32,000 nt of DNA from Trichlorobacter lovleyi SZ (GCF_000020385.1 NC_010814.1:240001-272000); one strand, 5' to 3'; counted from the stretch's first letter, positions 2,374 through 24,712 are shown. Notes: a model not told the origin generated them from the letters alone. Program-made: numbers and translations.

Positions 2374-2391
2374 AAATATCATACCAACACC

Positions 2392-3275: not shown

Positions 3276-3306
3276 GACAAAGAAACAATAATTTCTATCC
3301 CTCTGC

Positions 3307-3383
3307 GGGTAGGCGGTTTTAACCTCCTCCCCGACCGGCGAGGGTGTTATCTCCGCCTGCCCCCTGTTACCAAGGAGACAGGC
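3307..3383 (+). promoter_or_regulatory. structured 5' leader L2 (variant of the triad)
   Basis: 3307-3316 gggtaggcgg pairs with 3353-3362 ccgcctgccc (10 bp, one G-U). The adjacent tctcc at 3350-3354 is complementary to SD ggaga at 3374-3378. ATG at 3384. Confidence 0.35.
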
Positions 3384-6737: not shown

Positions 6738-6758
6738 CGAGACCTCAACCATCAATCC

Positions 6759-6819
6759 GTGCGGGGACAGATACCCCGTAAGGGTCGATCTGTCTCCGCA
6801 CATTACAAGGAGACAGTCC
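6759..6819 (+). promoter_or_regulatory. structured 5' leader L3 (SD mimic / anti-SD / SD triad)
   Basis: 6759-6769 gtgcggggaca pairs with 6791-6801 tgtctccgcac (11 bp, one G-U). 6791-6797 tgtctcc is the exact complement of SD 6809-6815 ggagaca. ATG at 6820. Confidence 0.55.
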
Positions 6820-7254
6820 ATGGCAGACACCATATCAGCAAAACGCCTCATCATACCCATTCACGACAACAGCGAGTTCTTCTCTGACAACGCTGACTAC
6901 GCCGTCATCGATCTTGATGCCACGCTTATCGAGCGGATCAAGAAACTTGCGGTGGTTGTAAGGCAGATGAAAGCCTACAAAATCAGCGAATTCAACCATG
7001 CCTGTGACTTCATGGTGGCTGACTGGGATGCCGAGCCGGACAACGGCAAGGTAGCCCTGAAGGAATTTGAGGGACGAATGGAGTGTAATACTCTGAACGT
7101 CACCGACAGTGATTTTTTCTGGTCGGGCTATTACAAACATACTGATGTTCGGTGGGAAACCGACACGGTGCTGCTTGTAGTGCTCGACGAGCCAGGCATC
7201 CATGATGAACGGGAAACTTGCACAGATGTGACCGGTCAAGGTGAATCATCATGA
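6820..7254 (+). CDS. hypothetical protein (144 aa)
   Basis: Internal ATG of ORF 6487..7254 preceded by AAGGAGACAG. The longer form overlaps the helicase gene. Confidence 0.6.
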   Translation: MADTISAKRLIIPIHDNSEFFSDNADYAVIDLDATLIERIKKLAVVVRQMKAYKISEFNHACDFMVADWDAEPDNGKVALKEFEGRMECNTLNVTDSDFFWSGYYKHTDVRWETDTVLLVVLDEPGIHDERETCTDVTGQGESS

Positions 7255-7463
7255 GAGGGAAAGATCTGAGTTCTCTTGAGTGGCAACCCGTCAATGACCC
7301 CAATGGCATGACCGCCTATGAAGCCTTTGATGCAAAAGGCCGCAGTTACTACCTGGTACGGAACAAGCACAAACCGGAGATGATGTTCGTCATCAGCGAC
7401 GGTTTCACGGTTCCTCCCGGGTGGTACACCGACAAGGGCGGCTCTATCAGAAGAGTTTCCTGA
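7251..7463 (+). CDS. hypothetical protein (70 aa)
   Basis: ATGA start/stop overlap with the preceding gene. Confidence 0.5.
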   Translation: MRGKDLSSLEWQPVNDPNGMTAYEAFDAKGRSYYLVRNKHKPEMMFVISDGFTVPPGWYTDKGGSIRRVS

Positions 7464-7482
7464 CAATTAACCGCCAACCCCA

Positions 7483-7547
7483 TCGGGGAGATACGTCTCC
7501 CTCCGGGGTTTCTGTCTCCCCGAACCATCAATCAAAGGAGACAGTCC
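7483..7547 (+). promoter_or_regulatory. structured 5' leader L4 (SD mimic / anti-SD / SD triad)
   Basis: 7483-7493 tcggggagata pairs with 7513-7523 tgtctccccga (11 bp, one G-U). 7513-7519 tgtctcc is the complement of SD 7537-7543 ggagaca. ATG at 7548. Confidence 0.55.
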
Positions 7548-8246
7548 ATGGCAGACTACATGAATCAATCAGTATTCCAACCTTCCATTCCCAAACACCT
7601 GATCAACGACGAGGACCGACGCATTATCGAGGCGTTCAGCATCACATTTGAATCCGACGGCGAGGACAAGTTCTACCTCTACGCGGAGGAGTGGTGCTGT
7701 AATGGCTACCTCAATCCGGAGGAGCCCGGCGGAGAAGAGATCGAAATCAGTGAGGACGATCTTTTCAGCAGGTTCCAGGAGATTATTCGCCGCTCCAACG
7801 GTGAACTTCCCTGGATCTCCAAGGAGAGCGCCTATACCTGTTCGCGGATGCGACCGGATGGCTTCGGCGGCGGAGCAGTTTTCATCACCGCTGATGACAT
7901 TCAGTACAGCTTTACCGGCCAATGGCTGGAACAGCGGATCAGCGAAACAGAAACCGGTGACATCGGTCCACATACGGAAGATCCACCTCCGACCAAGCCG
8001 ATTGTCGGCGTCGTCCTCGAAGGCGGTCTGGTGCAGAGCATTGTCAGCAATGTACCGGAGCAGATCCCGGAAATGGACGTGATTATTCTCGACTACGATG
8101 TCGAGGGGTTCGAGGAGGAATGTCTTCTCAAAGTTCCCCAGAGCAGCGGCGAAATCGCTCGTGCTGTTGGACACATCGAGAAGATTACCGAGTCCGGAAT
8201 CGATCTGGGAATGGTTCTCAATCAGATGAATGCAAGGGGGTGGTGA
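7548..8246 (+). CDS. hypothetical acidic protein (232 aa)
   Basis: AAGGAGACAG SD. The translation initiation region is identical over 22 nt to that of the gene at 6820. Confidence 0.65.
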   Translation: MADYMNQSVFQPSIPKHLINDEDRRIIEAFSITFESDGEDKFYLYAEEWCCNGYLNPEEPGGEEIEISEDDLFSRFQEIIRRSNGELPWISKESAYTCSRMRPDGFGGGAVFITADDIQYSFTGQWLEQRISETETGDIGPHTEDPPPTKPIVGVVLEGGLVQSIVSNVPEQIPEMDVIILDYDVEGFEEECLLKVPQSSGEIARAVGHIEKITESGIDLGMVLNQMNARGW

Positions 8247-8247
8247 C

Positions 8248-8769
8248 ATGAGCCCTCTTGAGCAAACGACAGACGAACCGACCAACGAGGAACGTGCCGA
8301 CCGAATCGACACGGTCATGCAGGCCTACTGCCTGACACTCGAAGGCCGGGATTTCGATGGCGACGAAGATGACGTCAAAGACATGCTCACGGACCTGATG
8401 CACTTCTGTAAGCGTATGAAGATTGACTTTGAGGAGAATCTCCGCGTCGCCCGCAACAATTACGAACATGAGAGAAATGCGGAAACCGGTATACCGGATC
8501 ATTTCGGTTGCCTGGTATGCGGCTGTTTTCTGGAAGTCTCACGAACCGATACCCTGTTGGGGATCGACCGGGAGATTTTTGACTGTCAGAACTGCGATGA
8601 GACCTTCATCCGGGAGCTGACGGTAACAGACAGCCCCATTGAACGGGCCGTGAAGTGCATCGGCTGCGGCAACATGATTCCGCAATCATCAGCACGCATC
8701 TTCTACCAGCGCGACGACTACGCCCATTTCATCGGCGAGTGCTGCTGGGACGAACGACTACGCGACTGA
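8248..8769 (+). CDS. hypothetical Cys-rich (zinc-ribbon-like) protein (173 aa)
   Basis: The ATG lies 1 nt after the upstream stop and is preceded by AAGGGGG. Contains CLVCGC...CQNC and CIGCG...CCWDE cysteine pairs. Confidence 0.6.
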   Translation: MSPLEQTTDEPTNEERADRIDTVMQAYCLTLEGRDFDGDEDDVKDMLTDLMHFCKRMKIDFEENLRVARNNYEHERNAETGIPDHFGCLVCGCFLEVSRTDTLLGIDREIFDCQNCDETFIRELTVTDSPIERAVKCIGCGNMIPQSSARIFYQRDDYAHFIGECCWDERLRD

Positions 8770-8794
8770 CCAAACTACCATAATACATCCAGCG

Positions 8795-8854
8795 GGGAGA
8801 CAACTCCCCGAGGGGAAAGTCTGTCTCCCAGGCTAATAGCAAAGGAGATAGACC
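8795..8854 (+). promoter_or_regulatory. structured 5' leader L5 (SD mimic / anti-SD / SD triad)
   Basis: 8795-8802 gggagaca is the exact complement of 8822-8829 tgtctccc. 8822-8828 pairs with SD 8844-8850 ggagata (7 bp, one G-U). ATG at 8855. Confidence 0.5.
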
Positions 8855-9310
8855 ATGCCCACAAAAATCACTCTCAACCCCGGCTATGCCGGCGGTGTTT
8901 ATGTTCTCGACCATGGCGAGTTCTATACCTGTCTGGGCTTCGATGTTGTCTTGAAGAAGGCGGCAGCCCTGGCAACGGAACTGAACTCTCCTGAACACTC
9001 CCCTGTTCCAACCGAACGCGGCACCATGGCAGCTTATCGCAAGTACTCTGCCCTGGTTGATAAAGCCCGCCAGAAGAATATCTCAACCGGATGGCGCTCG
9101 CGTGTTGACCTGACAGCCGATCTGATCGGTCTGGAGGGAAAACGCGTGGAGGTCATCGACTGCTACGGAGATCGCCGACGTTTCATTGTTGGTCGGTCAA
9201 CCGGGTGGATACCATGCCACCTGGAGATCAAATCCCGGAGCAGTTCCGGGGGTGAAGCTGTCTGGGGAACTCCGTTTCGTTCAGTACGAGTAGTCGGGGG
9301 TACGGCATGA
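8855..9310 (+). CDS. hypothetical protein (151 aa)
   Basis: AAAGGAGATAG SD and coding-length ORF on the operon strand. Confidence 0.6.
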   Translation: MPTKITLNPGYAGGVYVLDHGEFYTCLGFDVVLKKAAALATELNSPEHSPVPTERGTMAAYRKYSALVDKARQKNISTGWRSRVDLTADLIGLEGKRVEVIDCYGDRRRFIVGRSTGWIPCHLEIKSRSSSGGEAVWGTPFRSVRVVGGTA

Positions 9311-9858
9311 ACATAGGCCATCACACTACAGGAGGTACGAGAAGAATGACTGTAAAAACCGTCATCTCTGCGGCGAAGGAATTCGGCGTACCGGAACGCT
9401 ATGCGATCATGCGCCGGCTTTCATTCCTGCAACCGCAAATCAAACATCTGGAACGTGAAATCTGGGGAGCCCAACGGCGGATCGAGCGAAGTTCTGATCC
9501 GCTGGTAAAGGCCCTGACTGAATCCTTCATCAGAGACCAGGAAAAGGAGCTGCGCCCCCTGAAACGGGAGGCAACAGCGCTTCTCAACCATGTCAACGGC
9601 AAGGAGACGGTGCTGGCACCCGGCGGGATCACCCCGGAGATGATCGACCAGGCCCGTCAGTATCCCATCACCAGCATCATCGACTTTTCCAAAGGGCGGT
9701 ATCGATGCTGTCCGTTTCACAAGGACCGCAATCCGTCCATGGCGCTTTACGATAACCATGTCCATTGCTTTGTCTGCAACCGGTCATGGGATTCAATCAG
9801 CGCCACGATGGAACTGGATGGTGTGAACTTCCGGGAGGCAGTACTGGCGCTCCAGTAA
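9307..9858 (+). CDS. CHC2 (DnaG-type) zinc-finger protein without recognisable TOPRIM/primase catalytic domain
   Basis: C-terminus has CCPFHKDRNPSMALYDNHVHCFVCNRSWDSI, which fits the zf-CHC2 pattern. ATGA overlap with the upstream gene. An alternative start is at 9346 after GGAGG. Confidence 0.7.
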   Translation: MNIGHHTTGGTRRMTVKTVISAAKEFGVPERYAIMRRLSFLQPQIKHLEREIWGAQRRIERSSDPLVKALTESFIRDQEKELRPLKREATALLNHVNGKETVLAPGGITPEMIDQARQYPITSIIDFSKGRYRCCPFHKDRNPSMALYDNHVHCFVCNRSWDSISATMELDGVNFREAVLALQ

Positions 9859-9884
9859 CCTGAATCAATATCAATCAACCCTAT

Positions 9885-9939
9885 GGGGGCGGACACTGCC
9901 CCTTGGGGGAGTCCGCCCTCAACAATTTAGGAGGCGGAC
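9885..9939 (+). promoter_or_regulatory. structured 5' leader L6 (triad with covarying sequence)
   Basis: 9885-9894 gggggcggac pairs with 9911-9920 gtccgccctc (10 bp, one G-U). 9911-9917 gtccgcc is the complement of 9933-9939 ggcggac, which covers the 3' half of the SD through position -1. ATG at 9940. Confidence 0.55.
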
Positions 9940-10431
9940 ATGAATCTCGATCTCTTCGGAGAACCAGCAGCACCGACAACAAAAAGAATCTTCATAAAAT
10001 CAATCGAAGCCCGTTATCGCAACGAGGTTGTCAGAGACAACGCCCCTCAGTGGGTATCAATGCGGTTTACGCAACCCCAGCAGGTATTCGAGATGTTCCG
10101 GGATCTCCGTCTGGAGACAAAGGAGCACTTCATAGTTCTGCATCTGGACGGCAAAAACCGGATCGTCTGCTTTGATCGAGTATCGATTGGATCGCTCAAC
10201 CAGGCCATTGTCCATAGCCGCGAGGTCTTCAAAACGGCATGCCTCTCGAATGCGGCGGCCGTGCTCCTCGTGCATAATCATCCTACAGGTGACCCGACAC
10301 CCAGCCAGGAAGATATCGCCATCACCAGACGTCTCAAGGAAAGTGGCGAGATCCTCGGCATCAAGGTGCTTGATCACATCATAGTCGGTGATGACGAGTT
10401 CCTGAGTTTTGTTGAAAGGGGACTCTTGTAA
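9940..10431 (+). CDS. radC: RadC-like JAB/MPN domain protein
   Basis: LVHNHPTGDPTPSQEDI is the JAMM-type HNHPSG-x-PS motif. The 163-aa size is typical of mobile-element RadC. Confidence 0.9.
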   Translation: MNLDLFGEPAAPTTKRIFIKSIEARYRNEVVRDNAPQWVSMRFTQPQQVFEMFRDLRLETKEHFIVLHLDGKNRIVCFDRVSIGSLNQAIVHSREVFKTACLSNAAAVLLVHNHPTGDPTPSQEDIAITRRLKESGEILGIKVLDHIIVGDDEFLSFVERGLL

Positions 10432-10478
10432 ATAATGAGGGAGCGGCGCTCAAACGCCCTCCCTCGGCTCTTCCCCCA

Positions 10479-10538
10479 GCCCAAAAGGGTTCCTTAGAGC
10501 CACCGTTCCAGCGGTGGTTGTAGGGAGCCCTTTTGGGC
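10479..10538 (+). other. 60-nt imperfect extended hairpin (unknown role: ncRNA, ssDNA structure or processing site)
   Basis: 10479-10493 gcccaaaagggttcc pairs with 10524-10538 ggagcccttttgggc (15 bp, one G-U). The inner stem is 10500-10505 ccaccg with 10512-10517 cggtgg. It is preceded by a second hairpin, 10437-10443 gagggag with 10459-10465 ctccctc. No U-tract follows either hairpin. Confidence 0.45.
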
Positions 10539-10568
10539 CACCATCACAACGATAAGGGGGATAGAGTC

Positions 10569-10706
10569 ATGTCAGTTCGAGCACGCATTAACGGTAGGGA
10601 GTTCACACTGAGTTGGGAGGAGTTTGAGAAGGCTCTGCAGAGAAACAATCTTGCAGGAGGCGAATTCGAGGTTCTTGCCATTCTTTCGGGGGTGAAACCC
10701 TACTAG
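10569..10706 (+). CDS. possible small ORF (45 aa, MSVRARINGREFTLSWEEFEKALQRNNLAGGEFEVLAILSGVKPY)
   Basis: ATG preceded by AAGGGGGA with a terminator 35 nt downstream. It is below the ORF-track length cut-off and has no recognisable motif. Confidence 0.3.
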   Translation: MSVRARINGREFTLSWEEFEKALQRNNLAGGEFEVLAILSGVKPY

Positions 10707-10724
10707 CATCTTCAGTCCGGATAC

Positions 10725-10768
10725 CAGTCCGGTCTGGATAGAGGCGGCCCTAGTGGTCGCCTTTTATT
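10725..10768 (+). repeat. direct repeat copy 1 (contains terminator hairpin 10742-10762 plus TTTATT)
   Basis: cagtccggtctggatagaggcggccctagtggtcgccttttatt. 38 of 44 positions are identical to 12419-12462 by hand alignment. Confidence 0.65.
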
Positions 10769-10817
10769 CGTTGATGAACATAATAATCTTCCCGTAACAA
10801 TACTCAATAGTCTAGCG

Positions 10818-10846
10818 TTGACAACTCACAATAATCTAGCTAGTAT
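10818..10846 (+). promoter_or_regulatory. candidate sigma70 promoter of the Fic gene
   Basis: TTGACA (10818-10823), a 17-nt spacer, then TAGTAT (10841-10846). It is flanked by two AATARTCTAGC direct repeats (10805-10815 and 10830-10840). Confidence 0.4.
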
Positions 10847-10882
10847 GAGACAAAATAACCTAGCCGAGACAGAGGTATGGAT

Positions 10883-12409
10883 ATGGCAACAACACCAGCA
10901 CAACGCAGACTTGCTGATGCACTCGACGTCCTGAAAAAACTGCAGGATGGTGGGAAGACTGCAGTAAAATCGAGTGACCTGACTCGATTACAGCGGGAAA
11001 GTCTTGTCAGCAACGGATTCCTGCGACTGATTGTTAAAGGATGGTATATGCCATCCCGTCCGGGAGAGGACACCGGTGACAGCACTCCCTGGTATGCAGC
11101 AATGCGTGACTTTATTCATGGCTACTGCGATGAGAGATTTGGCGATAATTGGCATGTATCGGCAGAATACTCATTGCTTTTACACGCCGGCACAACAATC
11201 TCGCCACGGCAGGTTGTGATTCACTCGCCGCTTGGGAAAAACGGCCTGTTGCAGCTACCGGACGATTGTTCAATCCTTGATTATAAGGCCAAGGATTTCC
11301 CGTCAGCAGCAAAAATACAAGCCGTTGATGGAGTCAGAGCTCTTATCCTGCCTTTAGCACTCATCCGTGTGCCGGAAGCATTTTTCGTCACATTTGCACA
11401 GGATGCACAAATTGCCCTGCATCAACTTCGTGATGCATCAGAACTCAATCGCGAACTGCTCGAAGGGGGCCATAGTACAATTTCCGGACGTCTTGCCGGT
11501 GCATTGCGGGCATCTGGCCGTAAAGAATTGGCGGATGATGTGTTAGCAACCATGCGGGCTGCAGGGTTTGTGGTGAACGAAACAAATCCATTTAACGTTA
11601 CACCACCAAGTCTGCAATTCACAAGAGCACAATCACCGTACGTTCTTCGTATGCGCTTGATGTGGCAAGCAATGAGGGAAACAGTAATTGCCTGTTTCCC
11701 ACTCGAACCTGGCACTCCAGCAGATATTGATAAATATATGGAGGTTGTTGAGGAAACCTACCAGACCGATGCCTATCACTCTCTGTCGATTGAGGGGTAC
11801 CGTGTAACTGCCGAGCTTATTCAGAAGGTTGCTACCGGAAACTGGAATCCCGATGATAATGCTTCTGACGCAGAAGCAAAAAATGCCATGGCTGCTCATG
11901 GGTACTGGCTTGCGCATAATGAGGTTAAGGCAACGATCAGAGGCATTCTTGCAGGTGCAAACCCGGGCGCTGCATTCCGCCTGGACCACGGTTCATGGTA
12001 TCGCAAGCTTTTCACGCCGAATGTCGATGCCGGCTTTCTCAAGCCGGCGGATCTAGCCGGTTATCGGGCAGACAAGGTATTTATCCGGAACGCATCCCAT
12101 GTCCCGCCTTCCCAGGAAGCGGTCCGTGACATGATGCCGGAACTGTGCGACTTGCTGGAGGCGGAGCCCAACGCAGCCGTACGTGCCGTTCTTGGACATT
12201 TTCTTTTCGTGTACATCCATCCGTATTTTGATGGCAATGGTAGATTGGGCCGGTTCCTGATGAATACCATGCTGGCGTCTGGTGGATATCCGTGGACAGT
12301 AATCCGCATTGAGCTGCGGGGTGACTATATGGCAGCGCTTGAAGCGGCGAGTTCGCAAAAAGAAATAAAACCTTTTGCAGAATTCATAGCAAGTTCGATG
12401 AACAGATAA
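10883..12409 (+). CDS. Fic/DOC family protein with N-terminal wHTH-like region
   Basis: The canonical Fic motif HPYFDGNGRLGR lies near the C-terminus. GAGG sits 7 nt before the ATG at 10883, and an in-frame ATG at 10877 is also possible. Confidence 0.9.
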   Translation: MATTPAQRRLADALDVLKKLQDGGKTAVKSSDLTRLQRESLVSNGFLRLIVKGWYMPSRPGEDTGDSTPWYAAMRDFIHGYCDERFGDNWHVSAEYSLLLHAGTTISPRQVVIHSPLGKNGLLQLPDDCSILDYKAKDFPSAAKIQAVDGVRALILPLALIRVPEAFFVTFAQDAQIALHQLRDASELNRELLEGGHSTISGRLAGALRASGRKELADDVLATMRAAGFVVNETNPFNVTPPSLQFTRAQSPYVLRMRLMWQAMRETVIACFPLEPGTPADIDKYMEVVEETYQTDAYHSLSIEGYRVTAELIQKVATGNWNPDDNASDAEAKNAMAAHGYWLAHNEVKATIRGILAGANPGAAFRLDHGSWYRKLFTPNVDAGFLKPADLAGYRADKVFIRNASHVPPSQEAVRDMMPELCDLLEAEPNAAVRAVLGHFLFVYIHPYFDGNGRLGRFLMNTMLASGGYPWTVIRIELRGDYMAALEAASSQKEIKPFAEFIASSMNR

Positions 12410-12418: not shown

Positions 12419-12462
12419 CAATCCGGTCAGGATAGAGGCGGCCCAAATGGCCGCCATTTATT
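12419..12462 (+). repeat. direct repeat copy 2
   Basis: caatccggtcaggatagaggcggcccaaatggccgccatttatt. See copy 1. Confidence 0.65.
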
Positions 12463-12478: not shown

Positions 12479-12952
12479 TTATCGTTGCCCGGTAGCTGAC
12501 TTCAACATTCGATGAAAATCGCCTGATGACTTTACTGACGCATAAGAAGCCCTGAGAGATTCTGATTTTTCAAGTAGAACACTGCTATCATTATTATACA
12601 GTCTTACAAATTCTGCTAAATGTTCGGGTCTATTCATTATCGGCCAAATATCTAAATATTCCGGCAAACTGACGCCATCAATTTTGTATGAACAGATACG
12701 CCTATCAGCTTCAGAAGCAACCCCTACTTCAAAAGGGACCCACCAAGAACCTGATGTATTGTGTGACATTATCGCCATTAAATGGCTACAGTCACCTATT
12801 CTTGACATAATAACATCAGTAATATTTTTAGATCGTTGCAGTACTTCATCAAATTCATCAATATAGCACTTAATCTTGTTGGCCTCCAAATATGCGTATA
12901 TCTTGAGAGCAGATGCTTTATCTGCTTTACGATGAGACAAAAACACTGGCAT
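12479..12952 (-). CDS. small stand-alone TIR domain protein (157 aa)
   Basis: N-terminal MPVFLSHRKADK, then SGSWWVPFEVG with a candidate catalytic Glu. GGGAGG SD. Confidence 0.8.
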   Translation of the reverse strand: MPVFLSHRKADKASALKIYAYLEANKIKCYIDEFDEVLQRSKNITDVIMSRIGDCSHLMAIMSHNTSGSWWVPFEVGVASEADRRICSYKIDGVSLPEYLDIWPIMNRPEHLAEFVRLYNNDSSVLLEKSESLRASYASVKSSGDFHRMLKSATGQR

Positions 12953-12964
12953 AAATACCTCCCG

Positions 12965-13513
12965 TTATTGACAGCTACGATTATTAACGAACCGATCTCT
13001 CGGATTTACAATTAGATTTGTTTTTGAAGTCCTTGCCAGAAATGCATTATGTATTGCATTAGCCAGAGTGTCCTTGCGCGTTGGGTACTCGATCCATCGT
13101 GCATAGCAATCTACTTGCTGATCATTTTGCTTCAAATTCAAGTTCAGTCTGTTTGGGAAGTTGGTTCCACTTTTAAAACTAGGCAACTTAATCCCAAGTA
13201 AGCCATTGGGTGTCAATGTATTGCCGCTTCTTAGAGACGATTGTATCTCCCAGTCAACATACCTACGAGCCCACGTGCATTTACCCATAAGTACAATTGT
13301 TACCGTGGAATCTTTCAGATATAATTCCCTGATTCGCTTCATAACATAATCAGTATCTGTGCTACTAATTATGCTTTCCTCCATATCAACGCCCAGAACT
13401 CTCGATATGAATACATTTCGTTCATCAGAAAAAGTAGTTATGAAATCATTGACTTCCACTTGGTCTGCGTGGTGATAGGTAATAAATACTTTGTGTCGTA
13501 CGTTGTTACTCAT
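12965..13513 (-). CDS. ThsB-like TIR protein (DUF1863 / MTH538 TIR-like class)
   Basis: KVFITYHHADQ and STVTIVLMGKCTWARRYVDWEI parallel the ThsB pattern (VFFSFHY ... SVTCVLIGSQTFNRRWVRYEI). AGGAGA SD. Confidence 0.8.
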   Translation of the reverse strand: MSNNVRHKVFITYHHADQVEVNDFITTFSDERNVFISRVLGVDMEESIISSTDTDYVMKRIRELYLKDSTVTIVLMGKCTWARRYVDWEIQSSLRSGNTLTPNGLLGIKLPSFKSGTNFPNRLNLNLKQNDQQVDCYARWIEYPTRKDTLANAIHNAFLARTSKTNLIVNPRDRFVNNRSCQ

Positions 13514-13551
13514 AATGGTCTCCTATAAATTTAGTTTTAAAGGCACAAATT

Positions 13552-15573
13552 CTAAGTGGAAAGATTCTTTAGACCTTGAATTATCAGATATATGCACTCA
13601 TCCACAAAAGGGGTTGCCATAAGTCGTAAATACGTCGCCTCGTCAAGCCCTGCATTCTTTGATATTGTCGAAACATCAATTCCTTCGAGGATTGTCTTTA
13701 CTTGTCCGTAGTTTGCATTATTGCCGCTCTTCGAGGCTAAGGTTTGAAGATCAACATACTCTGCATTATAAGTAACCTGCCATGTCTCAGTAAGTGAGTC
13801 TGGATAAGGTTCCTGGCGTAATATCTTACAGACCTCGCCAACAATACCGCCGAATGCGCCCAACAGATAAATAGGTTTATTTTTGTCTATTGCGATAAGT
13901 ATTTCTTCCAAAACTCCTGGCATTTTACCGTTGTATCCTGAAATCTTACCGCCCGCGCATACTCTAGCGTGTGAGGAGTCGATGGATTGTTGGCGCATTT
14001 CTGTGAGACAGCGAGACCAAATATATTTATTCTGAGGTGATGTGGGAGGAAGATATTGATCAGTGTCAACATCATTAGCAATATCGGCTGGAATATCGTG
14101 TTCGACAGTGTTCATAACTGCTCTATAATTTGCACGCCACGAGGTCATTTCTTTATCAGCCTTATGGATTGGCCATGCTAAATGATTTTCCACATGTATG
14201 TCATGGGTATTGAGACGGGATTTCAATGCCACAGCTTCATTGAGGATAAATTCTGTAAAGCCATCCTTGCGTAAGTCCCCTCCATAGATCAACGTGGCAG
14301 ATCTGGCAAGCAGGTGTCTTGCAAGATCTTGGGCCAGCCTTACAGATTGGCTTGTGGGGAGATGGTGCTCTTTAAAACAGCCACTTGCGACATCAGAGAC
14401 AGAGATGCCAACTCGTAAACCTTTTAGCGAATTATTGTCAGAACTGCTCCAAAGAGGGGTAAATGTTTCAATCGATAGATGGCTATGCCACTCGCCTTCT
14501 TCAGAATAAATTGGAGGTTCCGGATAACAGAGTTTATTTTTCTGGTCATCTGACTTCAACGTAAGAAGTTGACGAATTTCAGGTGGTCGGGAAAAGAGAG
14601 CACATCTGCTGTCGATCCAGCCTCTTGCTTGATAATGCTCAAGTGAGGACAGAGCATGGCAGTGGCGTATAGTCTCCAGAATTGCGGCGGTGAGTATTTT
14701 GAGTACATCTGATTCCTTGAGCGGGGATTCTGGCGATATATGAACACATGGTATATTCGAACCAGCGGGAAAGATTCTGTCTTCAAATTCCTCCAAACAG
14801 TTGATGGCTATCATTGGCCGGTGATGCTCTTTTGCACTTAAAATTTCCCGCTGACACCAATATCGAGATGAATAATCGTCACTACAAATCGCCAACACAG
14901 TTGATTCTTTAATGCTTTTAATTATTTCCTCGTCAAACTTGAATCCTGGGGAAATTGTCGTGGCATCAAAAAAATGAGACATGTTTGTAGTGTCGATAAA
15001 TCGCTTAATTGATTCTGCGTGTAAACGTCCGGTGTCTCCACTCTTTGCATGGCTGAGAAATAATTTTATGGAAGATGACTTTCCATGGTCCTGTTCTTCT
15101 ATTTCAATAAAACCATGTCGATATAATTCATGTGCCATGGCAAGTACCGTATTTTGAACCATGTATTCCTTCTGCCACTCATATACACGAATGAAATTAA
15201 TGTTTTTGAGGCTTCCCCCACCACCGTGCCCAAGCCCCTCATGGGACAATGCAACAGGAACTGCCCGCATTGTTCGAGTAAGCTTCAGATTGTTGATGTA
15301 ATTGTCCCATAATGTGTATCCTCTCGTATTGACACTCGTAAAAACAAATAAAACATTCCGTAAAGCGAGTTCACTCGGGAGGTCATTGGGTACGTCGGTC
15401 GGACTGCATGAACTATAGAAAAAAATTGGAATATTTAGATTTCGAGAAAAAGGACGATTGATATCCCTTGAAAAGCACCTAGTAATTGCTTCTAGGATCG
15501 GATCAACGGTATCACTGTCCAATGGATGCCATATGAAGTGAACTGCAATAGGTGGTTTGTATTGTGGGGACAT
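13552..15573 (-). CDS. multidomain TIR-SLOG protein (N-terminal TIR-like region, central TIR, C-terminal SLOG/STALD-like domain)
   Basis: The central region has KLFLSHAKSGD ... DDYSSRYWCQREI (TIR). The C-terminus has LIYGGDLRKDGFTEF and GKMPGVLEEILIA ... LLGAFGGIVGEV, which resemble the LOG/SLOG glycine-rich and PGGxGTxEE-type motifs. GAAGGA SD. Confidence 0.8.
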   Translation of the reverse strand: MSPQYKPPIAVHFIWHPLDSDTVDPILEAITRCFSRDINRPFSRNLNIPIFFYSSCSPTDVPNDLPSELALRNVLFVFTSVNTRGYTLWDNYINNLKLTRTMRAVPVALSHEGLGHGGGGSLKNINFIRVYEWQKEYMVQNTVLAMAHELYRHGFIEIEEQDHGKSSSIKLFLSHAKSGDTGRLHAESIKRFIDTTNMSHFFDATTISPGFKFDEEIIKSIKESTVLAICSDDYSSRYWCQREILSAKEHHRPMIAINCLEEFEDRIFPAGSNIPCVHISPESPLKESDVLKILTAAILETIRHCHALSSLEHYQARGWIDSRCALFSRPPEIRQLLTLKSDDQKNKLCYPEPPIYSEEGEWHSHLSIETFTPLWSSSDNNSLKGLRVGISVSDVASGCFKEHHLPTSQSVRLAQDLARHLLARSATLIYGGDLRKDGFTEFILNEAVALKSRLNTHDIHVENHLAWPIHKADKEMTSWRANYRAVMNTVEHDIPADIANDVDTDQYLPPTSPQNKYIWSRCLTEMRQQSIDSSHARVCAGGKISGYNGKMPGVLEEILIAIDKNKPIYLLGAFGGIVGEVCKILRQEPYPDSLTETWQVTYNAEYVDLQTLASKSGNNANYGQVKTILEGIDVSTISKNAGLDEATYLRLMATPFVDECIYLIIQGLKNLST

Positions 15574-15585
15574 TCTATTTCCTTC

Positions 15586-15849
15586 TTACCGTGTCATTTT
15601 TTTGGACGGCCTCTGCGCCAACGCGCTTGCCGCGGCTGTTTTTGACGTTTTGCTTGTTCGCCCGTCACGTAGTACACTTGATGCCGCCGACGCCGCTGCT
15701 TCCGATGTCACCTTTTTAGGTGCGTTTGTCTGTGAAAGTGTGCTACCTGCCGCAGTTTTTGATTTCGGAGCAGTATTGCCACTTTTTAACGTTTTTGCTG
15801 CACTTGATGCCGCCTTTGGCCCTGTTACCCCAGATTTTACCTTTGACAT
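15586..15849 (-). CDS. small basic Ala/Ser/Lys/Thr-rich repeat protein (87 aa)
   Basis: AGGAG SD 6 nt upstream. It is the first gene of the operon and stops 12 nt before the TIR-SLOG start. It has four degenerate repeats with an AA-S-x-L core (AAKTLKS, AAGSTLSQ, AASSVLRD, AAASALAQ). Confidence 0.55.
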   Translation of the reverse strand: MSKVKSGVTGPKAASSAAKTLKSGNTAPKSKTAAGSTLSQTNAPKKVTSEAAASAASSVLRDGRTSKTSKTAAASALAQRPSKKMTR

Positions 15850-15867
15850 TTCAATCTCCTTTTTTTC

Positions 15868-15896
15868 TTGAAGTTTTCTATCATGAAGGGTATAAA
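15868..15896 (+). promoter_or_regulatory. candidate promoter for the WYL regulator gene
   Basis: TTGAAG (15868-15873), 17 nt, then TATAAA (15891-15896). Confidence 0.35.
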
Positions 15897-15908
15897 AACT
15901 GTACGCAT

Positions 15909-15937
15909 AATATATATACGGATAGTTGCTATGTCAA
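15909..15937 (-). promoter_or_regulatory. candidate promoter for the TIR operon
   Basis: On the minus strand, TTGACA (15937-15932), 17 nt, then TATATT (15914-15909). This is close to consensus. Confidence 0.4.
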
Positions 15938-15975
15938 TATAGTTTTTATACGTATCAAGAAAATGGGAGAATTCG

Positions 15976-16827
15976 ATGGATGATCAATCGGTTACGATTC
16001 CTTGGAGTACGCGAAAACGGCTGCAATATCTTGAATTCAAGCTGTATTGGGAAGGAAGGGTCAATCGAGGAGACCTAACTGCAGAATTTGGAATATCAAT
16101 CCCCCAGGCTTCGGTTGATTTCACAAAATATCAGGAGATGGCACCCAATAATATCTCATACAATTCAAGTGCGAAATACTACGAGCCAGCCGAATCATTC
16201 ACACCGATATTCATTGAGCAATCAGCGGATGCATATTTTTCAACTATCTTGTGTTCACCGACCGATAGCATTGCCACTTGTGGATCGGATTATGTCGCAG
16301 CTGTTCCAAATCCTACTCGTGCTATCGATCTTGATGTTCTAAGAACATTGGTTCAGTCCATCAAGAATAAGCAGGTTGTCTCAGTAGATTATCGGTCATT
16401 TAACAATCCACAACCAGGAAATACTCGATTGATTTCTCCACATGCCTTTGGAACAGATGGGTCGAGGTGGCATGTACGAGCGTATTGCCATGAAAGTAAT
16501 TCTTTCAAAGACTTCGTACTTGGAAGGATAGCTTCTGCAGTAATGGGGTCTGAGTCAGACATTGATGTGAATAGCGACTTCAAATGGTTTAACTATGTCG
16601 ATGTTGAAATCGGTCCTAATCCAAAGTTGAGCGAAGCGCAAAAAAGTATCGTCGTTATGGATTATAGAATGACTGATTTCAAATTGAAATTTAAGTGCAG
16701 GATGGCCCTTTTTTTCTATTTGTCGAAAAAGCTTGGGATCGACCGTAACGACAGCGAGCGTGCTGGTGAAGAGCAGCAAATCGTGGCAATAAATTTGGAT
16801 GAAATCAACGCGTCTATGCGTCAATGA
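15976..16827 (+). CDS. wHTH-WYL domain transcriptional regulator (BrxR/CapW-like)
   Basis: The N-terminus has RGDLTAEFGISIPQASVDFTKY (HTH). The middle has RLISPHAFGTDGSRWHVRAYCHESNSFKDFVLGRI (WYL-type). GGGAGA SD. Confidence 0.85.
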   Translation: MDDQSVTIPWSTRKRLQYLEFKLYWEGRVNRGDLTAEFGISIPQASVDFTKYQEMAPNNISYNSSAKYYEPAESFTPIFIEQSADAYFSTILCSPTDSIATCGSDYVAAVPNPTRAIDLDVLRTLVQSIKNKQVVSVDYRSFNNPQPGNTRLISPHAFGTDGSRWHVRAYCHESNSFKDFVLGRIASAVMGSESDIDVNSDFKWFNYVDVEIGPNPKLSEAQKSIVVMDYRMTDFKLKFKCRMALFFYLSKKLGIDRNDSERAGEEQQIVAINLDEINASMRQ

Positions 16828-16831
16828 AGTG

Positions 16832-17608
16832 ATGAAAATAAGTATTTCCGAGCAACTTTCGAATATCGAAACCGCCCATGGCGTGCGTATTCTCTACGCA
16901 GTAGAATCCGGCAGCCGTGCCTGGGGTTTTGCCTCCCGCAACAGCGACTACGATGTCCGGTTCATCTATATTCACATACCAGACTGGTATCTCTCGATTC
17001 GTGAACGGCGGGATGTTATTGAATGCCCAATTTCTAACGATCTTGACATCAGTGGCTGGGATCTCAGAAAAGCACTTGGTTTGTTCAGCAAATCCAATCC
17101 TCCGCTCCTGGAGTGGCTCGGTTCTCCGATTATTTACATGGATGCTTTTGGACTTGCCAGTAGATTGCGTGAGATGCTGACCACTTCATTTCAACCGCAG
17201 CGCAGCATGTATCACTACTTGCACATGGCTCGGGGCAACTATCGGGAGTACCTGAAGGGGGAAGTAGTCAGGCTGAAGAAATATCTCTATGTGTTGCGAC
17301 CAATACTTGCCTGCCTCTGGATTGAAAAGCACGGGACAATGCCGCCCACCGAGTTCAGCAAGCTGGTACGCGATGCACGTCCGTCCGTCACGTTGAGTGC
17401 GGCCATTGATGACCTATTGCAACAAAAAATGTCTGGTAACGAACTGGATACGGCCCCAAAGATCCCAGTGTTAAACGAATTCATTGAGCAGATGTTGGAT
17501 CATTACAGCCTGTTGTCTGGCAAAAGACCGACTCCGGTCGCTGACTATGATGCCCTAGATCAGCTCTTCAGAGAGATGCTGCAATCGGTGTGGGGTAACA
17601 CACCGTGA
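16832..17608 (+). CDS. Pol-beta superfamily nucleotidyltransferase, COG3541 / RlaP-like
   Basis: ILYAVESGSRAWGFASRNSDYDVRFIY, then WYLS...RDVIE...LDISGWDLRKAL...SNPPLLEWLGSPIIY. The start lies 4 nt after the WYL stop. An alternative in-frame ATG is at 16799. Confidence 0.8.
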   Translation: MKISISEQLSNIETAHGVRILYAVESGSRAWGFASRNSDYDVRFIYIHIPDWYLSIRERRDVIECPISNDLDISGWDLRKALGLFSKSNPPLLEWLGSPIIYMDAFGLASRLREMLTTSFQPQRSMYHYLHMARGNYREYLKGEVVRLKKYLYVLRPILACLWIEKHGTMPPTEFSKLVRDARPSVTLSAAIDDLLQQKMSGNELDTAPKIPVLNEFIEQMLDHYSLLSGKRPTPVADYDALDQLFREMLQSVWGNTP

Positions 17609-18096
17609 ATGTCCAACTGGAAAAAATCGTATCCGGTGGACAAACCGGTGCTGACCGGGCCGGTCTCGATGTTGCCATGAAAGTCGGACTCCCTGTCGGT
17701 GGCTATTGCCCCAAGGGTCGTCTGGCTGAGGATGGCACAGTGCCAGAGCACTATCCTCTGGTTGAAATGACCAAGGGAGGCTATTCCGCCCGTACCGAAC
17801 GAAACGTCATAGAATCGGACGGGACTCTGATTCTTAATATCGGCAAGTTGTCCGGGGGAACCCGGCTAACCGTGGAGTGCGCTCGTAAGCACAACAAACC
17901 TCACTTGGTAATCCAGTTGGATACGGCCAAACCGAAGGTATCCACGCTTGCGGAATGGATCGACGAGAATAATATCCGGGTGCTGAATGTCGCTGGTCCG
18001 CGCGAGAGCAAATCACCCGGGGTGCATCAATTGGCTTGCCGTTATCTGGAGGAATTTTTTCTGGCGGCAGGCTGTCAACCCGCGACAGGATCGTAA
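17605..18096 (+). CDS. stand-alone SLOG domain protein, cpYpsA ('MoCo carrier') type
   Basis: IVSGGQTGADRAGLDVA signature. The GTG start forms a GTGA overlap with the upstream stop. Confidence 0.8.
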   Translation: MNVQLEKIVSGGQTGADRAGLDVAMKVGLPVGGYCPKGRLAEDGTVPEHYPLVEMTKGGYSARTERNVIESDGTLILNIGKLSGGTRLTVECARKHNKPHLVIQLDTAKPKVSTLAEWIDENNIRVLNVAGPRESKSPGVHQLACRYLEEFFLAAGCQPATGS

Positions 18097-19293
18097 ATGA
18101 CTGCAACCAGTATCGTCAAATCTCTCTTCCCGCAAGAAACCTGGTCCAGGATATGGATTGTTGGTGGCACGGTCAGGGATGTTCTCAATGGGAAAGACGG
18201 TGAGGACATCGACCTCGATGCCGTCTTGACTCCAGAGGAACTGGCATCATACGGTTTCAGGCCTGTAGACCCAGTGACCAGCGCACCCATCTGGTTTCGG
18301 CACATCCCGGAGATCGGCAAGATCGAGATCACCAGTCTGGCGAGTGTCGACCTGCTCACCGATGACCTGACTCGTCGTGACTTCACAGTGAACGCCATGG
18401 CCATGACACTAGATGGAGAAGTTGTCGATCTGTTCGGGGGAATTCAGGACCTGGGACAAAAGAGACTCCGTGCGTGCTCGGACGTATCATTTCAGGGTGA
18501 TCCCATCCGGATTTTTCGCGCATTCCGTTTCGAGTCTGAAGAATGGCGCATGGACCCTGATACAACTCGAATGATCAGCGATGTTTCGTGGGAGAAAAGC
18601 TTCTCATGCATTCCGGTGGAACGATTCAGCCGAGAAATGGTCAAAGCCCTGGGCAAGGGAGAACCGGAACGATTTTTTCGCAACATGGTCGAAATGAATG
18701 TAGGCAGCACTTATCTGCCGGAGCTGTTTGCCATGAACACAGTGCCGGCAGGTCCGATTGACAAACACCCCGAAGGTGATCTCCTCACTCATTCGCTCCA
18801 GGTATTGCAGCGCACTGTCGGGGCAAGCAATGATCCGCTCGCCAGATTCTGTGCCCTTTTCCATGATCTAGGTAAACTCGAAACAGATCCGGAGCTTTAC
18901 CCCAAGCACCACGGTCATGATGATGCTGGCAAGATCACTGCCAAGAAGTTCTGCGACCGCCTTTGCCTGCCTGTATCCTGGAGACGCGCTCTCATGGGAA
19001 TATGTCACTTGCACACCAACGCGAACAACTGGAACGAACTTCGGGACTCAACCAGGATTCGCATGGCTGACCAAGCGGTTAAGTCTGGCATTACCGAGAT
19101 CCTGCCGCTGGTGTCTGCGGCGGATAAACCTTGTGGATCTGGTATGGCTGGATGGGAGATGACAGTCCGGATTGTGCAGTTGAACACAGCCGAGTTGGGG
19201 ATAAATCAGGACGCCATGGAAACCATGCCGGTTGAGAACCGGGCAGGATTCATCTTGCAGAAGCGGGTCGACCAACTGCGTCGTCAGATATGA
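18097..19293 (+). CDS. class II CCA-adding enzyme / poly(A) polymerase family nucleotidyltransferase with HD domain
   Basis: IVGGTVRDVLNGKDGEDIDLD (GGxVRD plus DxD), RRDFTVNAMA, GDPIRIFRAFRF, then HPEGDLLTHSLQV and ALFHDLGK (HD). The ATG directly abuts the upstream TAA. Confidence 0.85.
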   Translation: MTATSIVKSLFPQETWSRIWIVGGTVRDVLNGKDGEDIDLDAVLTPEELASYGFRPVDPVTSAPIWFRHIPEIGKIEITSLASVDLLTDDLTRRDFTVNAMAMTLDGEVVDLFGGIQDLGQKRLRACSDVSFQGDPIRIFRAFRFESEEWRMDPDTTRMISDVSWEKSFSCIPVERFSREMVKALGKGEPERFFRNMVEMNVGSTYLPELFAMNTVPAGPIDKHPEGDLLTHSLQVLQRTVGASNDPLARFCALFHDLGKLETDPELYPKHHGHDDAGKITAKKFCDRLCLPVSWRRALMGICHLHTNANNWNELRDSTRIRMADQAVKSGITEILPLVSAADKPCGSGMAGWEMTVRIVQLNTAELGINQDAMETMPVENRAGFILQKRVDQLRRQI

Positions 19294-19769
19294 GTTTGAA
19301 CGCTGCTGTCCTGGAGCCATTGCTGAACGAATTGTTTCTCTCGGGTTCTTTTCAAGTCGAGTTGCCAATGCACGGCGGCGCAGACATCGGAACAATAGGA
19401 TACAACCCGAATGCGCGGATCGTCTTCCTCGGTGAACCTCACATGAATCATGCCAACCTTCTGCTGGGGCGAGGTGCAGGCTTCACAATGTTGAACCGTC
19501 GGGCCATTGAGTCCGTCATCATTGCTGACTGACAGGAACCGAGTGCCCGATATGTTGATGAAGGTGCGGTGCCAATAGGCGTCTCCTTCGACAACCAATA
19601 TGTTGCGCAGGTGATGGCATGACAATTCCTGTGAATAGCTTCTGTTACAAAAAGGGCAGACTCCGCGATCGAAGCGGTCGCTTATCCCGGAAATCATGGT
19701 TAGCGCTCCAGGGGTGAGATCCTTGTGATCACAGACAACGGGCTTGCCTTCATGGTCCCAGAGAATCAT
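19284..19769 (-). CDS. hypothetical Cys/His-rich protein (161 aa)
   Basis: ATGA overlap with the integrase stop. Contains CPFC...CHH and CEAC...C..C..H clusters. Its 3' end overlaps the convergent CCA-like gene by 10 nt. Confidence 0.5.
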   Translation of the reverse strand: MILWDHEGKPVVCDHKDLTPGALTMISGISDRFDRGVCPFCNRSYSQELSCHHLRNILVVEGDAYWHRTFINISGTRFLSVSNDDGLNGPTVQHCEACTSPQQKVGMIHVRFTEEDDPRIRVVSYCSDVCAAVHWQLDLKRTREKQFVQQWLQDSSVQTHI

Positions 19770-20854
19770 GGCGACTCCTCTGTCTCCTGGTCAGGAGCGG
19801 ATGGTATGCATGAATCATCAACCGGCGGTGTCGGTGCCGTAGTTATTACCAGAGGAATTTTTCTGGTGAAGCGTTTATGCTCCCGGCCACTGGCGGCATA
19901 GATGGCGCTGGTGCTGATGTCCTCATGGCGTAACGTATCCTGGACGGCCCGGATGTCCTTGGTGACATCGTATAACATTGTGCCGCACGTGTGCCGCAGG
20001 GCATGGCAGGAAACCCGTTTCCGTTTCAGACCGGCTTTGCTCAGGTAACCGTCAATGACACTATTGAGGCCGATGCGCGATATCCGGCCCCTGCCTCGGC
20101 CATTCTTGCGCACGCTGAGAAACATTGGCGTAACGAACGCTTGCCGGTGATGGATGGTGGTTTCCTCGACTGTAACCTCACCCCTGGCAGCAAGGTAGGC
20201 CCGGATGGCGGCCACTGTATCTTCCCGGGGGTAGATATAACCATCTTTGCGCTTGCCGTGGACCAGAATGCGCACACCGCCCTCGACGTCTTCGATGTCT
20301 TCGACGTTGGCCCGTTTGATTTCGACACGCCGGAGTCCTTCGAGCAGCATAAGGGCAATGATGGCCCGGTCGCGCAACCCTTTGATGCTGCCAAGTACGG
20401 GAAGGTGCATGATCAGCAGTTCCGCCTGTCCGGCAGTAAGATGTTTTTGCTCCGATTTAGCTTCCCGGGCAACAGGAGGGCGAACATTGGCCGCCGGATT
20501 GATGGCGACCAACCCCCGGTTCATGGCGACCTGGTAAAATCGTCTGATGACGGTCAGCTTTACCGCGATTGACGATGCTTTCATGCCGGCCTGGATGAGT
20601 TCATGGCGAAAGCTCTCCACATCGGCCTGGGTCATGGCAGCCGGAGTGATGCCACGGGCGTTACACCAGCGGAGCCAATGGTTGAGGTGGGACGTGTAGG
20701 TTTTGATCGTGTCTTCGCGTGGATCACCCAGGGCAACTTCACGTTCCAGCCAGTTGCGTACTGCGGCTTCAAGATCCGCTGGCAGGTTGTCCGGAATCTG
20801 GCTGGAGATCAGTGCCGAATGGGGGCCACCGGTCGGGATGATATCATTATTCAT
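19766..20854 (-). CDS. tyrosine recombinase / integrase (XerC/D-like, N-terminal SAM-like domain)
   Basis: LLEGLRRVEI (Arg I), HALRHTCGTMLY (H-x-x-R) and RHEDISTSAIYA (catalytic Tyr region). Confidence 0.9.
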   Translation of the reverse strand: MNNDIIPTGGPHSALISSQIPDNLPADLEAAVRNWLEREVALGDPREDTIKTYTSHLNHWLRWCNARGITPAAMTQADVESFRHELIQAGMKASSIAVKLTVIRRFYQVAMNRGLVAINPAANVRPPVAREAKSEQKHLTAGQAELLIMHLPVLGSIKGLRDRAIIALMLLEGLRRVEIKRANVEDIEDVEGGVRILVHGKRKDGYIYPREDTVAAIRAYLAARGEVTVEETTIHHRQAFVTPMFLSVRKNGRGRGRISRIGLNSVIDGYLSKAGLKRKRVSCHALRHTCGTMLYDVTKDIRAVQDTLRHEDISTSAIYAASGREHKRFTRKIPLVITTAPTPPVDDSCIPSAPDQETEESP

Positions 20855-22636: not shown

Positions 22637-22655
22637 TTATTATTCAACCTTTCTG

Positions 22656-24272: not shown

Positions 24273-24286
24273 ATAAGTCACTCCCT

Positions 24287-24712
24287 TTATATCTTAATAA
24301 CTTTCCAGCCACCTGAAAGGACCAGAACATCGTCCTGGCCCATCTCAGGTGCATTTGCACGTTTCACTTCCACCGTAAGACGGCCCTCTAAACACTTGGA
24401 CAAAACAACATGGTCACCAACCTTTGCATTTCGGGCTCTAAGATACTGAGTCATGCAAGTAAGCCGGTATTCATTTCTCGTCCCACCGAAAAAACGGTTA
24501 TTATAGTAAATAAAGTTGAAATCCCATCGGGTAATGCCGTCTCCTTCACGAAATACCAGTGTCACACGAGGATTCTTCTCTTTTGAATTTAATGATGGGA
24601 AAAAAGACAGAATCTCAAGGTCCTTAGGGACGAGAATTCCTGCTTGGTGGCCTCCGGTTTCACCTACGTCGTTCGCACTTAGAATCTTTGTTATTTGAGC
24701 CGAGTATGTCAT
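24287..24712 (-). CDS. stand-alone EcoRII-N-like (B3 / DNA-binding pseudobarrel) domain protein
   Basis: KILSANDVGETGGHQAGILVPK closely parallels EcoRII KRLSANDTGATGGHQVGLYIPS. It also has GGTRNEYRLT versus EcoRII GKTRNEKRIT. ATGA overlap with the SNF2 stop. Confidence 0.85.
   Translation of the reverse strand: MTYSAQITKILSANDVGETGGHQAGILVPKDLEILSFFPSLNSKEKNPRVTLVFREGDGITRWDFNFIYYNNRFFGGTRNEYRLTCMTQYLRARNAKVGDHVVLSKCLEGRLTVEVKRANAPEMGQDDVLVLSGGWKVIKI

Follow-up and report, generated by a model that had tools for sequence, protein, structure and literature searches.

In a 2025 preprint (Yirmiya et al., 10.64898/2025.12.03.692087), eleven types of Thoeris are distinguished. Type IX consists of a ThsB protein and a "TIR and SLOG" effector, ThsJ, and the corresponding operon from B. 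cereus VD021 protected B. subtilis (10.64898/2025.12.03.692087, Table S2). Type III consists of several TIR proteins and a SLOG-containing effector, its signaling being uncharacterized (10.64898/2025.12.03.692087). In the literature searched, no mention of type IX was found beyond this preprint. Here, we analyze a locus of Trichlorobacter lovleyi SZ with a related composition. The window (the whole stretch of DNA that was analyzed, 32,000 nucleotides (nt), NC_010814.1:240001-272000, with positions counted from its first letter) contains four minus-strand open reading frames (ORFs) arranged head to tail at 12479-15849, which code, in this order, for proteins of 87, 673, 182, and 157 amino acids (aa). 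The 673-aa protein carries a TIR and a SLOG domain, and the two genes that follow it code for stand-alone TIR proteins. We regard it as fairly probable that the locus is a Thoeris-family TIR signaling defense operon, located on a mobile element of this Geobacter genome and acting by a relay that leads from TIR-made signal to SLOG domain to NAD+ depletion.

A TIR-SLOG cluster2 family with invariant motifs

In the 673-aa protein, Pfam identifies a TIR_2 domain at residues 172-261 (E 1e-7) and an LD_cluster2 domain, "SLOG cluster2" (PF18163), at residues 383-647, the latter with an E value of 2.4e-59 and 201.5 bits against a gathering cut-off of 25.3; the alignment takes in positions 2-260 of the 264 in the model. 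The protein is then a clear member of PF18163, a domain definition that comes from comparative genomics and has no function attached. Along the chain, an N-terminal alpha/beta domain is followed by the TIR domain, a helical linker with a small alpha/beta unit, the SLOG cluster2 domain, and a C-terminal helical bundle. These assignments, together with those of the small proteins given below, agree with the preliminary description of this DNA, which had proposed a TIR fused to a SLOG-superfamily domain and accompanied by two stand-alone TIR genes.

Homologs of the 673-aa protein form 944 clusters at E<=1e-5, mostly of 670-690 aa, and are labeled in the sources only as "TIR domain-containing protein" or "SLOG cluster2". 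A set of 20 homologs from different phyla aligns over the full length with a mean column identity of 68%. In all 20, E243 and the surrounding YSSRYWCQRE motif are invariant, and the same holds for most residues of the SLOG motifs YGGDLR, GGK, MPGVLEE, and LLGAFGG. All the motifs quoted in the preliminary description are present, and most of their residues do not vary across this set. Also, the TIR motif aligns with the SSWCLDEL motif of the plant TIR 3JRN. More distant forms of the protein occur on plasmids. A full-length relative on a P. megaterium plasmid shares 30% identity, and the K. pneumoniae plasmid pKpnB199 (NZ_MK552108.1; L087 3980-5985) carries a split relative, in which a 397-aa protein formed by the N-terminal domain and the TIR abuts a 270-aa SLOG protein, with a divergent stand-alone TIR gene alongside and insertion sequence elements on the flanks.

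The AlphaFold2 (AF2) model of the full protein has a predicted local distance difference test (pLDDT) value of 78 and a predicted template modeling score (pTM) of 0.82. The only significant fold matches of this model in the PDB are the ThsA structures 6LHX and 7UXT, which supports, at the level of a predicted structure, the SLOG assignment; the C-terminal SLOG-like fold that had been anticipated thus finds backing in both the PF18163 match and the model. At the sequence level, searches of the PDB with the SLOG domain and with the family profile gave no ThsA, only a weak plant TIR match, and the SLOG domain itself matched no PDB entry. A STALD-type SLOG was considered and rejected, together with membership in type I ThsA, since Pfam gives SLOG cluster2 only, with no SIR2 or STALD, and the PADLOC ThsA models have no match. 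The earlier placement of this domain in the ThsA/STALD family, as a TIR-STALD fusion, is accordingly withdrawn, the NCBIfam ThcA model giving no match either. Compared with type I ThsA (6LHX, 7UXT), the 673-aa protein would have the same SLOG fold, judging from the model, and would also join a SLOG sensor to an NAD-consuming domain. However, its effector domain is a TIR instead of a SIR2, and its SLOG belongs to another Pfam family, with no sequence-level match to ThsA in the PDB or among the PADLOC ThsA models.

The N-terminal domain is conserved along with the rest of the family in the 20 homologs. In the full-length model, it is built as beta-alpha-beta-beta-alpha-beta-alpha-(beta)-alpha with a pLDDT around 80, and by eye its strand motifs (hFIWHPxD and FVFTSxNTxGxxxWxxY) recall betaA and betaC-alphaC of a TIR, without the catalytic Glu. 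The proposal that these first ~165 residues are a second TIR-like fold found no support: residues 1-165 have no Pfam match, hhalign against three TIR profiles gives probabilities <1%, and the AF2 model of the isolated domain has a pLDDT of 45, for which Foldseek gave nothing below E 0.2.

Stand-alone TIR proteins as partners of the 673-aa protein

Among species-representative genomes, 186 loci with homologs of the 673-aa protein were found, and the neighborhoods of the best 80 of these 186 were studied, the classes of neighboring genes being found by iterative profile searches; the locus counts given from here on refer to these 80. By Pfam, the 182-aa protein is a ThsB_TIR (PF08937, E 1e-17) and the 157-aa protein is a TIR_2 (E 3e-12). 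PADLOC ThsB models match both of them, and nothing in PADLOC matches the 673-aa protein beyond its TIR. A PADLOC classification, as the preliminary description had advised, then recognizes the small proteins as ThsB-like and leaves the large one without a model of its own. In both small proteins the predicted catalytic residue is conserved, Glu89 of the 182-aa protein being invariant in 105/105 relatives and Glu75 of the 157-aa protein in 19/19.

A ThsB-type TIR gene adjoins the large gene in 74/80 loci, belonging to many phyla, and a TIR_2-type gene does so in 35/80. Usually there are one to four TIR neighbors, upstream or downstream, on the same strand and with tiny gaps or overlaps. Of the six loci that have no TIR neighbor, five have the large gene close to or at the end of a contig; in the sixth, L062, it has ORFs on its flanks. 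This recurrence of TIR neighbors argues that the gene set is a real unit. Orthologs of the 182-aa protein align over the full length with 44-52% identity in Bacteroidota, Spirochaetota, Planctomycetota, Bacillota, and Proteobacteria, and they stay at 44-52% even where the effector is only 40-60% identical. This broad, full-length conservation makes the 182-aa protein a constant partner of the effector. The full-length orthologs of the 157-aa protein have 32-38% identity, and this TIR is a second, less constant partner.

A comparison of the published type III and type IX TIRs with the TIRs of the 80 loci indicates that TIR modules are common to several systems. Among the published ThsB sequences that were accessible, the nearest to both small TIR proteins are those of type VI. 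They share 36-43% identity with the 182-aa protein and 29-35% with the 157-aa protein, values that are too low to transfer product specificity. Moreover, type VI differs in its effector, which is a DUF6650 protein (ThsG) and not a TIR-SLOG protein. Three type VI ThsBs make 2' cyclic ADP-ribose (2'cADPR) on infection. The likeness of both small TIRs to type VI would be, then, a lead for the identity of the signal and not a result.

Comparison with type IX, type III, and TIR-SAVED

The VD021 ThsB sequence was recovered exactly, together with its neighbor ThsJ (L082 5877-7748). In the 623 aa of ThsJ, TIR_2 spans residues 147-235 and the SLOG spans 436-595, with Pfam SLOG cluster3 as the best-scoring family of the latter. 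Therefore, ThsJ and the 673-aa protein have their parts in a common order, the TIR lying between an N-terminal region and a C-terminal SLOG, and both effectors are operonic with one or more stand-alone TIR genes, so the effector composition of type IX is found in the window. The two SLOG domains are remotely homologous, with 25% identity over 197 residues and an hhalign probability of 86%. Orthology with ThsJ was considered and discarded because the alignment is limited to the SLOG.

In other respects, the two proteins differ. The ThsJ SLOG is best on cluster3 and matches ThcA, whereas that of the 673-aa protein is a cluster2 domain (201 bits) without a ThcA match; also, the N-terminal domain and the ThsB partners are other ones, and the operon of the window has two TIR partners and an extra gene, that of the 87-aa protein. 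When compared with the NCBIfam models of type III, ThsJ gives 84 bits with ThcA, in its SLOG, and 69 bits with ThcB4, over residues 37-285. From these matches, ThsJ looks like a ThcB4-ThcA fusion.

Type III Thoeris was reportedly described by van den Berg et al. in 2024 in P. aeruginosa L0872, where it is said to comprise ThcA and ThcB1-4. The window resembles it in having several TIR genes and a SLOG-superfamily protein in one operon. However, ThcA is a stand-alone SLOG of ~184 aa that belongs to cluster3, whereas the SLOG of the window is a cluster2 domain that forms part of a TIR protein. In agreement with the type III layout, relatives of the type III TIR4 of P. aeruginosa L0872 occur with a stand-alone cluster3 SLOG of 187-194 aa that is flanked by TIR genes. 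One of them, the ThcA-like SLOG of L084 (2002-2565), served as a positive control and reached 242 bits with the NCBIfam ThcA model (cut-off 110). Membership of the 673-aa protein in type III was ruled out, given its lack of a ThcA match and a ThcB4 score far below the cut-off.

The architecture of the locus, on whose experimental characterization the preliminary description took no stand, is thus already known in its essentials, since type IX has a defined "TIR and SLOG" effector, ThsJ, and type III combines a SLOG with several TIRs. The SLOG cluster2 family is a distinct variant of the TIR and SLOG effector. A SLOG only remotely like that of ThsJ and the failure of both type III models to match lead to a third lineage and, judged by sequence, the protein of the window has the domain composition of type IX and belongs to a lineage separate from it, that of SLOG cluster2.

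A sensor fused to a TIR is also found in the TIR-SAVED proteins of CBASS (cyclic-oligonucleotide-based antiphage signaling system) and type III CRISPR, where a nucleotide sensor is joined to a TIR and NAD+ is depleted after ligand-driven assembly. This sensor-TIR fusion corresponds to the working model proposed here for the 673-aa protein. The difference is that SAVED binds cyclic oligonucleotides and that a CD-NTase or Cas10, instead of TIR proteins, makes the signal.

A proposed relay and its weighing

In the proposed relay, the stand-alone 182-aa and 157-aa TIR proteins would act as infection sensors that, once triggered, would turn NAD+ into a signal derived from ADP-ribose. In the 673-aa protein, the C-terminal SLOG cluster2 domain would bind this signal, and binding would switch on the fused TIR, probably via oligomerization. 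The active TIR of the 673-aa protein would then destroy NAD+, and the infected cell would stop growing. This sequence of events is proposed because the catalytic and pocket motifs are invariant, the linkage of the effector with stand-alone TIR genes is conserved, the predicted fold is like that of ThsA, and type IX offers a precedent. Moreover, the locus has the general features of a Thoeris system, namely a stand-alone TIR with a catalytic Glu and an operonic effector with a predicted ligand-sensing domain. A defense role, which we infer, is also consistent with the setting, a defense-rich mobile region with an integrase, an EcoRII-type restriction-modification system with Vsr and Dcm, and a Fic gene.

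Several points weigh against this relay. Another "TIR and SLOG" operon, that of P. macerans, was not protective (10.64898/2025.12.03.692087). Also, the type IX ThsB made 3'cADPR, yet added 3'cADPR triggered no effector toxicity (10.64898/2025.12.03.692087), which leaves a simple relay unproven even for the precedent. The likeness of the 673-aa protein to the validated ThsJ is confined to the SLOG domain, with no homology found over the full length. As for type III, the ThcA model (NF058525) had no match to the 673-aa protein at E<=10, and the ThcB4 model (NF058526, cut-off 220 bits) gave 20.1 and 21.6 bits, both confined to the TIR region. In the literature searched, no experiments on the TIR and SLOG cluster2 family were found. 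Sequence does not distinguish a signal-making TIR from an NAD-depleting one, so that the assignment of the small TIRs as sensors and of the fused TIR as the killer may be otherwise. The SLOG retains a complete LOG-like MPGVLEE motif and could therefore act enzymatically instead of only sensing. Finally, the nucleotide-metabolism genes that accompany 35/80 loci, described below, hint that a nucleotide different from the cADPR isomers could be the ligand or substrate. From the Thoeris-like logic of the preliminary description, then, what stands are the TIR neighbors in 74/80 loci, the invariant Glu of the three TIRs, and the ThsA fold matches of the model, and what does not yet stand is the switching on of the effector by a ThsB signal, which 3'cADPR failed to bring about even in type IX.

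The failure of the known type IX ThsB product to activate its effector would also be expected if the TIR proteins assembled by contact, with no diffusible signal. In that case, the 673-aa protein would combine the roles of sensor and effector, its conserved N-terminal domain being a candidate sensor, the small TIRs would be adaptors or subunits that nucleate a hetero-oligomeric TIR NADase, and the SLOG would give feedback by binding the product. The tight linkage of the partner TIRs to the effector, with which the 182-aa class co-varies, is consistent with such an assembly, and the split form of K. pneumoniae and the layout of type III show pieces working as a multi-protein set. However, the Glu is invariant in both classes of small TIR, which argues for enzymes over pure adaptors; the closest characterized relatives of these TIRs make a diffusible product, 2'cADPR; and the invariance of the SLOG motifs is what would be expected of a ligand pocket. 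We consider a contact-based assembly quite improbable.

Nucleotide-metabolism genes in related operons

In 35/80 loci, the large gene is operonic with genes of nucleotide metabolism (for example, L016 4267-9854, L053 5986-11604, and L035 1305-6887). In these 35 loci, an Nmad2 gene (PF18753) always lies directly 3' of a ThsB-type TIR gene, which it often overlaps. Two sets of companions are observed. The first comprises a MazG protein with a MazG_C domain (22 loci) and a protein of the uracil-DNA glycosylase (UDG) superfamily (15 loci); the second comprises a dCTP-deaminase-like gene (6 loci), a thymidylate-kinase-like gene (4 loci), and a gene with the helical domain of 5-hydroxymethyldeoxyuridine (5-hmdU) DNA kinase (17 loci). 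The nearest relatives of the window that lie on long contigs, L035 and L053 (65-68% identical), carry the second set. Nmad2, MazG_C, UDG-like, and second-set genes are absent from the operon of the window and from about half of the 80 loci. Nmad2 recurs as a TIR partner outside the SLOG cluster2 family: P0243 (220 aa, on an 898-bp contig) is a partial Nmad2 joined to a ThcB4-like TIR, which is 82% identical to the type III TIR4 of P. aeruginosa. From this fusion, Nmad2 may be a general TIR accessory. No mention of Nmad2 was found in the literature searched.

These genes open a different explanation of the locus, as a nucleotide-centered conflict system in which the SLOG would be a LOG-like N-glycosidase or a sensor of modified (deoxy)nucleotides, the TIRs would act on nucleotides alongside enzymes that modify or hydrolyze them, and the window would hold a reduced version. 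The 35 operons with Nmad2 just after the ThsB-type TIR, their MazG_C and UDG genes or dCTP-deaminase-like, thymidylate-kinase-like, and 5-hmdU kinase genes, the extended form of the nearest long-contig relatives, and the intact LOG-type motifs all fit it. Moreover, Aravind and colleagues (PMC9503650) have proposed that SLOG domains may cleave ribosyl N-glycosidic bonds, besides sensing ADP-ribose derivatives, and the explanation draws on that proposal. Nonetheless, the window and about half of the loci keep the TIR set without any of these genes, which are therefore not required for the core, and the fusion of Nmad2 to a ThcB4-like TIR means that it may simply be a Thoeris accessory or sensor. 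As an account of the locus, a nucleotide-centered system is likewise quite improbable.

A bolder version of the relay would keep the Thoeris framework and change the ligand. The TIR and SLOG cluster2 proteins would form a third independent Thoeris lineage whose ligand is none of the known cADPR isomers, TIR immunity would be tied, as the operons shared with nucleotide-metabolism genes in nearly half of the loci suggest, to nucleotides with modified bases, which the system would sense or make (those of phages with hypermodified DNA being one example), and the window would hold a minimal, TIR-only core. We hold this to be possible, if on the unlikely side.

The operon and its surroundings

The features of the operon are listed in Table 1. 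Every ORF is preceded by a purine-rich Shine-Dalgarno sequence (GGAG, AAGGAA, AGGAG, and GGGAGG), the gaps between the genes are 12, 38, and 12 nt, and the operon has a GC content of 38-43% against 53-55% in the flanks, which bears out the preliminary description of a four-gene, AT-rich operon with good Shine-Dalgarno sequences and gaps of 12-38 nt.

Table 1. Features of the TIR operon in the window, with positions counted from the first letter of the window.
Feature	Position	Strand	Remarks
Promoter-like TTGACA-17 nt-TATATT	15909-15937	-	5' of the first gene; consensus match only
87-aa protein, first gene of the operon	15586-15849	-	ORF with GGAG Shine-Dalgarno; 12 nt to next gene
673-aa predicted effector (TIR + SLOG cluster2)	13552-15573	-	Pfam; 38 nt to next gene
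N-terminal domain, residues 1-165 of the 673-aa protein	15079-15573	-	Predicted alpha/beta; without Pfam match
TIR domain, about residues 166-262 of the 673-aa protein	14788-15078	-	TIR_2; YSSRYWCQRE; predicted catalytic Glu243
SLOG cluster2 domain, residues 383-647 of the 673-aa protein	13633-14427	-	PF18163; predicted ligand sensor
182-aa ThsB-type TIR protein	12965-13513	-	PF08937; predicted catalytic Glu89; 12 nt to next gene
157-aa TIR_2-type TIR protein, last gene	12479-12952	-	TIR_2; predicted catalytic Glu75
GC-rich hairpin, likely terminator	12437-12455		Located where the TIR operon and the Fic gene converge

The promoter-like site (15937-15909) agrees with the consensus at 11/12 positions and is the best minus-strand site of the region. 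An imperfect 23-nt inverted repeat, with arms at 15881-15903 and 15938-15960 that are 78% complementary, lies on either side of it; these arms, between a WYL gene and the TIR operon, could be an operator. The hairpin 3' of the last TIR gene has 7 GC pairs and a 5-nt loop, and because its T-run is on the plus strand only, its role as a terminator for the minus strand is putative.

The 87-aa protein is rich in Lys, Ala, Ser, and Thr and is formed by two repeats of ~40 aa of the type AAxSASKTLRDGRTSKxSKxAAGSALSQ, with no match in a Pfam search. Its family has 277 cluster representatives at E<=1e-3, which makes the ORF a member of a real gene family. Elsewhere, the repeat is fused to antitoxin-type domains (HicB-like, HTH_37, and Xre_MbcA_ParS_C). 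The gene adjoins the TIR-SLOG gene in only 4/80 loci, all from Geobacter (L001, L005, L006, and L072), so that the protein looks like a lineage-specific accessory of the Geobacter clade, which could be regulatory, DNA-binding, or inhibitory.

By Pfam, the block is set between RadC and Fic genes on one side and an integrase (19766-20854) on the other. The hallmarks of a mobile element at 655-12409 and 19766-20854 are a CobT/VWA protein, a 1117-aa DUF6094 methyltransferase-helicase, a protein with a CHC2 primase zinc finger, RadC, a 510-aa Fic protein, and a tyrosine integrase. The window has a match of 100% identity in L001, an uncultured Geobacter assembly, and copies with 99-100% identity are present in other assemblies. 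This position on a mobile element, between Fic/RadC and integrase, and the occurrence of the 87-aa repeat in fusions with antitoxin-type domains would also be compatible with a function other than defense, as an addiction or toxin-type module of the element, or with a decaying remnant. However, the four ORFs are intact, each with its Shine-Dalgarno sequence, the copies in other assemblies are nearly or fully identical, the conservation across phyla is strong, and the 87-aa gene is absent from 76/80 loci, from which a toxin-antitoxin pairing with it would not be general. A locus without a defense function is, on this evidence, highly improbable.

A second low-GC defense block lies at 21791-30215 on the minus strand. 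It codes for an HNH protein, an HATPase_c_3 protein, an EcoRII-N domain protein, and an SNF2 helicase, together with an EcoRII-C endonuclease, Vsr, and a C-5 cytosine methylase (Dcm), that is, an EcoRII-type restriction-modification system. Restriction-modification is also a recurrent context in the family, with a type I HsdR gene adjoining 19/80 loci.

Divergent from the TIR operon, a plus-strand operon (15976-19293) codes for a WYL-domain protein, an RlaP nucleotidyltransferase, a circularly permuted YpsA (cpYpsA), and a CCA-adding-like nucleotidyltransferase with an HD domain. The cpYpsA is another SLOG-superfamily protein, and the whole operon resembles what we take to be a predicted RNA-repair module. 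These genes were considered as a general component of the system and discarded, the combination being found in 1/80 loci only. In L068, the TIR operon likewise has a divergent WYL gene upstream, whose product is 32% identical to that of the window.

Implications for TIR-SLOG systems

The TIR-SLOG effectors are the least understood class of Thoeris, with one validated system. The SLOG cluster2 family offers a second entry point to this class, with >900 clusters, 186 species-level genomes, a spread over several phyla, and unusually strong conservation. Neither the validated ThsJ nor the type III ThcA belongs to it, its fused, split, and extended forms can be compared with one another, and it presents clear mutational targets in E243, E89, E75, and the YGGDLR and MPGVLEE motifs. 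If functional, the operonic link with nucleotide-modifying enzymes would tie TIR signaling to the sensing of the nucleotide pool or of modified bases.

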